64,000 nucleotides of DNA from Escherichia coli (GTDB taxonomy: Bacteria > Pseudomonadota > Gammaproteobacteria > Enterobacterales > Enterobacteriaceae). A program made the translations under genes and the position numbers. A model generated the notes under the pieces. It worked only from the letters and a program-made list of their open reading frames with translations. It did no database searches and was not told where the DNA came from. Where the stretch lies: the NCBI RefSeq assembly GCF_003334385.1, contig NZ_QOWN01000006.1; one strand, given 5' to 3'. This document shows positions 33,648 to 34,724 of this stretch, in pieces; positions within the stretch are counted from its first letter, which is position 1; each line of letters starts with the position of its first letter.

Positions 33648-33808
33648 ATTTTCTGTTTTCATGCATCCTTGCAAATCTTTATCTGATGTTGATTCAACAG
33701 GTTAGTGTGAAAACTCTTCTCGGTGCATTCTGATTTTACCCTACGCATCGGGAAAAATTGGTGGTCAAATCTGGGATCAGGTTAGTTCGATAATGGAGTG
33801 ACCCCCAT

Positions 33809-34724
33809 ATGTTCCTTACCGACGCAAAAATCCGCACCCTCAAGCCTTCTGATAAACCCTTTAAAGTCTCCGATTCTCACGGTCTGTATCTGCTGGTCAA
33901 GCCGGGTGGCTCCCGCCACTGGTATCTCAAAGCTGGAGGTTGCGTCCCGCACACGGCAGCACCTGAGTAACATAATGCGCCATGCGGTCCATCAGGAGTT
34001 AATCGATACGAACCCTGCAGCAAACCTTGGCGGCGTGACCACACCTCCTGTCAGACGGCACTATCCTGCCCTGCCGCTGGAGCGGCTGCCTGAACTGCTT
34101 GAACGTATTGGGGCATATCATCAGGGCCGTGAACTGACTCGGCATGCCGTTCTGCTGATGCTGCATGTGTTCATTCGCTCCAGTGAACTGCGTTTCGCCC
34201 GCTGGTCAGAGATTGATTTCACAAACCGAGTCTGGACGATACCCGCGACGCGAGAACCCATTATTGGCGTGCGTTATTCCGGCCGCGGGGCAAAAATGCG
34301 AATGCCGCATATCGTCCCCCTCTCAGAACAGTCCATCGCCATTCTGAAACAGATTAAGGATATCACCGGTAATAATGAACTGATCTTCCCCGGCGACCAT
34401 AACCCGTATAAGCCAATGTGTGAAAACACGGTCAATAAGGCACTGCGGGTGATGGGTTACGACACGAAAAAGGATATCTGCGGTCACGGCTTCCGGGCAA
34501 TGGCATGCAGTGCGCTGATGGAATCGGGTTTATGGGCAAAGGACGCAGTAGAACGCCAGATGAGTCATCAGGAGCGCAATACCGTGCGCATGGCTTATAT
34601 TCATAAGGCAGAGCACCTAGAAGCCCGCAAAGCGATGATGCAGTGGTGGTCGGATTATCTGGAAGCATGCCGAGAATCTTATGCACCGCCTTATACAATT
34701 GGTAAAAATAAGTTTATCCCATAG
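33809..34724 (+). pseudogene. int: P4-type phage integrase, disrupted by internal deletion and frameshift
   Basis: ATG 33809 opens a P4-integrase N-terminus (MFLTDAKIRTLKPSDKPFKVSDSHGLYLLVKPGGSRHWYLK) that stops at 33970; the catalytic domain (HGFRAM ... MAYIH) continues in another frame to 34724. Confidence 0.75.

Follow-up and report, generated by a model that had tools for sequence, protein, structure and literature searches.

An integrase pseudogene with a 347-bp internal deletion in a common-type HPI of Escherichia coli

Integrase remnant and cargo at asnT

The window analyzed here, a 64-kb (64,000-nucleotide) stretch of Escherichia coli DNA, carries a Yersinia high-pathogenicity island (HPI) inserted at an asn tRNA gene. 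Table 1 lists the features of its integrase end and its cargo. As in common-type HPIs, the insertion lies in asnT by mtfA with int adjacent, and the layout is that of annotated genomes. A pattern search with up to 3 mismatches returned one site for the 17-bp sequence CCAGTCAGAGGAGCCAA in the 64-kb window, within the tRNA-Asn gene; the role of this direct repeat as an attachment site is taken from the literature (PMC2606025, PMC8209727, PMC2801613). On the far side of int, the yersiniabactin cluster is complete from 34918 to 63747, with ORF sizes matching the annotated genes of comparison loci L003 and L004. Judged from these reading frames, the cargo is intact while the mobility gene is broken.

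Table 1. Features of the integrase remnant, attachment site, and cargo in the 64-kb window
Feature	Coordinates	Strand	Remarks
tRNA-Asn (GTT), asnT integration site	33572..33647	+	ARAGORN; annotated adjoining mtfA in sister genomes
17-bp attachment-site core CCAGTCAGAGGAGCCAA, left repeat (attL core)	33632..33648	+	3' end of tRNA-Asn
Mechanical 308-aa ORF	33798..34724	+	Codons 1-45 read the int 5' end out of frame
N-terminal stub ORF	33809..33970	+	ATG start, 53 aa, begins MFLTDAKIRTLKPSDKPFKVSDSHGLYLLVKPGGSRHWYLK
int 5' remnant	33809..33931	+	Gene nt 1-123, native codons 1-41, from alignment to intact allele; first half of arm-DNA-binding domain
Deletion junction	33931..33932	+	347 bp missing, gene nt 124-470, aa 42-157
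Out-of-frame tail of stub	33932..33970	+	12 non-native codons, TAA at 33968-33970
int 3' remnant	33932..34724	+	Gene nt 471-1263; codons 158-420 from 33933, no stop codon; last third of core-binding domain and whole catalytic domain; frame differs from that of the start codon
ybtS, first cargo gene	34918..36222	-	Intact, 434 aa; annotated ybtS in sister genomes
ybtX, ybtQ, ybtP, ybtA, irp2, irp1, ybtU, ybtT, ybtE, fyuA	36250..63747		Full-length ORFs
fyuA	61726-63747		Within yersiniabactin cluster

The int (intB) region, 33809-34724, is a split gene, represented in the ORF list by 53-aa and 308-aa ORFs in different frames. A first-pass annotation, made from the letters of the window, had placed the integrase N terminus at ATG 33809 with a stop at 33970 after 53 codons, and the catalytic domain in another frame running to 34724. 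The ORF list confirms both placements, and the second is further supported by a match of the second-frame ORF to positions 168-396 of the NCBIfam integrase profile PRK09692 (E=7e-41), while the 53-aa stub matches positions 8-46 only. Within the 308-aa ORF (33798..34724), the final 263 residues are integrase-like. GTG 33798 is unlikely to be a real start, since it comes immediately after the GGAG belonging to the native ATG and leaves no Shine-Dalgarno spacing, and the catalytic part of the remnant has no native start codon in frame. The protein encoded by the 3' remnant differs from intact alleles at 0 to 3 amino acids, and its translation contains the motifs HGFR and MAYIH, which, by comparison with the integrase family, we take to hold the catalytic residues (the HxxR motif and the tyrosine nucleophile). 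The segment 33809-34724 is a pseudogene of the HPI integrase, a P4/CP4-57-type tyrosine recombinase, adjoining tRNA-Asn asnT. The identical int allele is annotated in RefSeq as a "frameshifted" pseudogene.

At codon 2 of the remnant (window 33810-33814), Phe (TTC) replaces the Ser (TCC) found in 4/4 intact alleles compared. The Phe codon is common to strain 4/2-1 and may be a marker linked to the int-deletion haplotype.

The 347-bp deletion and its distribution

The segment 33560-34930 was compared by megablast with 5426 complete E. coli genomes. Full-coverage matches were of two kinds: single-piece matches spanning 1371 bp and two-piece matches spanning 1718 bp, the latter 347 bp longer. For alignment we used the intact allele of APEC E123 (1263 bp, 420 aa) and the single-piece genome of strain 4/2-1 as references. 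Compared to the intact allele, the window lacks exactly 347 bp in one gap and is ~99% identical elsewhere, such that gene nt 123 falls at window position 33931 and gene nt 471 at 33932. The proposal that an internal deletion split int across two frames is thereby upheld by alignment and ORF structure alike; the two segments are separated by 347 bp in the intact gene and hence are not contiguous there. Since 347 bp amounts to 115 codons plus 2 nt, the reading frame shifts. The first-pass annotation had estimated a loss of about 120 codons from the DNA-binding region, with the junction near 33935-33950; the region was correctly named and both figures came close, but the loss is 115 codons and 2 nt, and the site lies between 33931 and 33932, 4 bp to the left of that range. 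Its figure of about 420 aa for intact P4-type integrases agrees with the intact alleles (420 aa). No microhomology or repeats that could have caused the deletion were found at the int breakpoints (...TATCTCAAA/TACCG... versus ...AAGGTCT/GCTGG...). The junction can therefore be placed without ambiguity, and the event is unlikely to have happened independently more than once at exactly these bases; the deletion allele presumably arose once.

Three Pfam domains are found in the intact allele: Arm-DNA-bind_3 (PF13356, aa 3-87), Phage_int_M (PF22022, aa 98-191), and Phage_integrase (PF00589, aa 224-384). The structure of the N-terminal domain (aa 1-81) is available as PDB 3jtz/3rmp ("CP4-like integrase"), whose sequence is nearly identical over those residues. 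In the window, the arm-DNA-binding domain is incomplete, with aa 1-41 present and its second half deleted; the core-binding domain has lost residues 98-157 and retains 158-191, so that ~60 of its 95 residues are gone; and the catalytic domain is complete. Thus, relative to the three-domain architecture of P4/CP4-57-type integrases (PRK09692), which the intact parent allele displays, the window copy is a remnant in which the catalytic sequence is kept, whereas both the arm- and the core-binding domain are cut short and the reading frame is disrupted. The gene is 347 bp short of the 1263-bp alleles and contains no single ORF of ~420 aa. A programmed frameshift joining both frames was considered and rejected, since 116 residues belonging to two DNA-binding domains are missing from the sequence altogether. 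Two other matches, H98 and H108, were considered as further truncations and likewise rejected; they are full-length 1263-bp genes under another name ("integrase arm-type DNA-binding domain-containing protein").

To gauge the frequency of the allele, we used a 50-base probe centered on the int junction, for which a match seeds only where the junction itself is present. The junction 50-mer occurs in 334 of the 5426 complete E. coli genomes, once in each and always on the chromosome. The int-ybtS boundary, which served as the count of HPI-positive genomes, is found in 2250; therefore, ~15% of HPI carriers have the int deletion. Conversely, the deleted 347-bp segment is present in ~2000 genomes, and ~85% of E. 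coli HPIs retain a full-length int. Carriers of the deletion come from humans, cattle, pigs, chickens, a tapir, and seawater, and include many STEC-sized genomes (5.4 to 5.9 Mb) and an O111:H11 strain. When a 30-base version of the int junction was searched in one genome per bacterial species (GTDB r220), there were 0 matches and none outside E. coli.

The int deletion allele is already known, having been published to the base and annotated by RefSeq. Paauw et al. (2010; PLoS One 5:e8662; PMC2801613) amplified intB from 40 irp2-positive isolates, obtained int PCR products ~350 bp too short, sequenced them, and reported for four isolates that "intB lacked bp 124-470". The gene, the limits, and the 347-bp size are identical to those of the window, with no difference at the level tested, and the finding has therefore been described before; int PCR products ~350 bp shorter than expected are explained by this 347-bp deletion. 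Entries in Table S2 of that paper link GenBank accessions GQ891728, GQ891730, and GQ891731 to three of the four deletion isolates, and record a positive yersiniabactin reporter for three deletion isolates (PMC2801613). The same table lists the deletion for isolates R0332 and 03-414, which were assigned to the Enterobacter cloacae complex (PMC2801613). A genuine presence of the allele in more than one genus would imply that an island defective in excision has been transferred. Within E. coli, the 347-bp deletion can conveniently serve as a lineage marker in a subset of HPI-positive strains.

Island lineage and right border

Outside the deletion, the window int differs by 5 to 7 nt from common-type intact alleles, versus 25 nt from the ICE-type allele. 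Being nearest to the common-type alleles, it indicates that the deletion arose on a common-type HPI. The ICE-type HPI (ICEEc1 of ECOR31 / ICEKp1) was represented in our comparison by strain Ec-050-T5-ESBL (locus L004, NZ_CP086490.1 1975000-2024500), which has a complete ICE-type HPI at asnT adjoining mtfA. The published ECOR31 element reportedly sits at asnV. The Ec-050-T5-ESBL island contains a full-length int (420 aa), a 61-aa AlpA-family factor ~1.9 kb past fyuA, a virB T4SS, and mobBC, and its int is only ~97% identical to the common type. Its int-ybt-fyuA core and ~1 kb downstream of fyuA are homologous to the window and the common-type island, whereas its full-length int, AlpA excisionase, virB, and mobBC were not found in the window or in sister genomes. 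The common-type HPI at asnT (Schubert et al. 2009, PMC2606025) resembles the window island in its mtfA neighbor, its complete ybt-fyuA, and a close int haplotype. Relatives of the window also share the fyuA-side border deletion and the loss of the right repeat of that type; in contrast to the ~85% of members with a full-length int, the window island has the additional internal int deletion.

As only 253 bp of the window lie past fyuA, sister genomes alone were used to check the right border. Those 253 bp are identical to the sequence of strain 4/2-1, which has the same int deletion, and they are also 99% identical to the ICE-type island. In 4/2-1, fyuA is followed by yeeJ remnants and then by shiA and amn. 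In this strain, the 9.4 kb that separate fyuA from the next true asn tRNA gene contain no second CCAGTCAGAGGAGCCAA repeat, and a T4SS and mobilization module are absent downstream of fyuA. A tblastn search with the AlpA-family factor of the ICE-type HPI, run on the window and on the 17 kb that follow fyuA in 4/2-1, gave a best E of 2.3; the same value is the best in the window, in keeping with the earlier claim that no excisionase lies near int.

Comparison of common-type DNA with the ICE type showed that ~1 kb of island DNA is kept past fyuA before the join to yeeJ; in the source genome, the HPI::yeeJ junction AATTATAGATACCCCCCTGTTACGCAAACTCAACCAGTTTCGTACGTTTG is expected ~1 kb after fyuA. 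A 50-base probe across the common-type join returned 2058 full matches, while HPI-negative genomes match its yeeJ half only. The border is thus present in 2058 genomes versus 2250 that are HPI positive, and islands with a full-length int share it. We also sampled eight int-deletion carriers from different hosts. The HPI::yeeJ join or an identical chimeric protein was found in 7 of the 8, one of which has an added IS3 element, with a second repeat in none of the seven. The eighth, seawater isolate MB06232 (L012, NZ_CM129885.1 1930106-1933106), has a different layout, the expected right-border position lying inside irp1; this island must hold an insertion or rearrangement.

According to Schubert et al. 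(2009; PLoS Pathog 5:e1000257; PMC2606025), all common-type E. coli HPIs share the fyuA-side border deletion, the right 17-bp repeat is lost, and this border deletion fixes the island regardless of int. Auvray et al. (2021; PMC8209727) agree that the border deletion fixes the HPI. The lack of attR and of an AlpA-family excisionase in the common E. coli HPI is accounted for by this deletion, which fuses the island to yeeJ.

Several details of the border were noted. The right border of the common type creates a chimeric ORF (L003 3399-4109, junction near 3713), which is annotated as an "inverse autotransporter beta domain-containing protein". Some 117 N-terminal residues of this ORF derive from a hypothetical gene (308 aa) found in the ICE-type island, and an internal part of yeeJ supplies the remainder. 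The yeeJ remnants downstream of the chimeric ORF are annotated as frameshifted. In a chicken isolate with the int deletion, an IS3-family element lies between fyuA and the chimeric yeeJ ORF (L010 851-2058, NZ_CP067342.1).

Mobility of the island

Site-specific mobility of an HPI needs Int, two att sites with the 17-bp repeat that stems from the 3' end of the asn tRNA, and an excisionase, and intercellular transfer further needs a conjugation module. With the source genome predicted from its relatives to have lost attR and xis as well, site-specific excision of the island is very improbable, though the int deletion would not be the main reason. The full-length-int HPIs of E. coli (~85%) are equally fixed. 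The claim that the island is probably immobile for want of an integrase is therefore sound in its outcome, as excision is not expected, and incomplete in its cause, as the common-type HPI is fixed whatever the state of int. Furthermore, immobility applies to site-specific excision but not to all movement, as homologous recombination reportedly spreads the common-type HPI together with its flanks (Schubert et al. 2009, PMC2606025).

We are highly confident that int is a pseudogene produced by one 347-bp deletion, a secondary decay within an already fixed common-type HPI. In the proposed history, a right-border deletion would first have fused a common-type island to yeeJ, removing attR and the excisionase. 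The single illegitimate deletion of 347 bp (gene nt 124-470), which removed int residues 42-157, would have come later; the resulting frameshift leaves a 53-aa stub, such that probably no recombinase able to synapse att sites can be made. Loss of int would then represent secondary decay, affecting a mobility module that no longer served any purpose, and the island would persist as a fixed chromosomal segment, passed on by vertical descent or transferred along with its flanks through homologous recombination. That the border deletion came first is the simplest order, since the int deletion is found in a nested minority whose sampled members already are without attR and xis. On that order, the int deletion would count for no more than one of three or four independent defects, and it would not be the first of them. 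The locus would be a textbook example of how a pathogenicity island turns into a fixed chromosomal trait, its cargo for yersiniabactin synthesis and uptake intact and its mobility genes decaying. [quoted passage not shown]

It is very unlikely that the int deletion itself immobilized an otherwise mobile island. Int is reportedly required for both excision and integration of the HPI in Yersinia (Rakin 2001; Lesic 2004), the int gene is clearly broken here, and the right border lies beyond the window; all three would suit such a cause. Nonetheless, the allele sits on the common-type lineage, which is reported to be universally without attR (PMC2606025), with the HPI::yeeJ fusion and no repeat in 7 of the 8 carriers sampled and no excisionase found by tblastn in the window and the 17 kb past fyuA in 4/2-1. 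Moreover, HPIs with a full-length int have the same border (2058/2250).

We give still less credence to the idea that the C-terminal frame (33933-34724, 263 codons) is expressed from an internal start, such as the ATGs near 33977-33986, and maintained by selection as an arm-less catalytic fragment. Such a fragment could damp related asn-tRNA island integrases (those of the pks island or the ICE-type HPI) or stabilize the locus, and its selection would account for the high frequency of the allele. The frame is indeed stop free, differs by only 0 to 3 aa from intact alleles, and is frequent (334 genomes). However, E. coli HPI alleles differ by <1% and the island is young; therefore, an open C-terminal frame means little, and the absence of stops carries little weight. 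In addition, two thirds of the core-binding domain is gone. Judged by the analogous fragments of lambda Int, a protein of this kind would be incapable of synapsis or recombination; a product of an internal ATG would lack both DNA-binding modules that bridge arm and core sites and could not be expected to recombine. The frequency of the allele is explained by clonal expansion (e.g., of STEC-sized genomes) together with recombinational spread (PMC2606025). A selected function for the surviving catalytic frame thus appears to be without support.

Least credible is that the split is a sequencing or assembly artifact or that a normal integrase has the two segments side by side: assembly errors do often take the form of single-base frameshifts, but this lesion is a 347-bp gap and not a homopolymer slip, and the identical junction in 334 independent complete genomes and the sequenced PCR products ~350 bp short (Paauw et al. 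2010, PMC2801613) together refute an artifact.

Finally, many HPI int alleles listed as full length, including those of the Nissle 1917 derivative EcN_Sk and of APEC E123, have ATA rather than ATG as the annotated start (L013 1378-1380 and L002 3250-3252; window counterpart, 33809-33811). Should ATA initiate poorly, the ATA alleles and the 347-bp deletion together may leave over half of the HPI integrases in E. coli compromised. A 50-base probe centered on the ATA base matched 971 genomes, 862 of them exactly, or ~40% of HPI-positive genomes.
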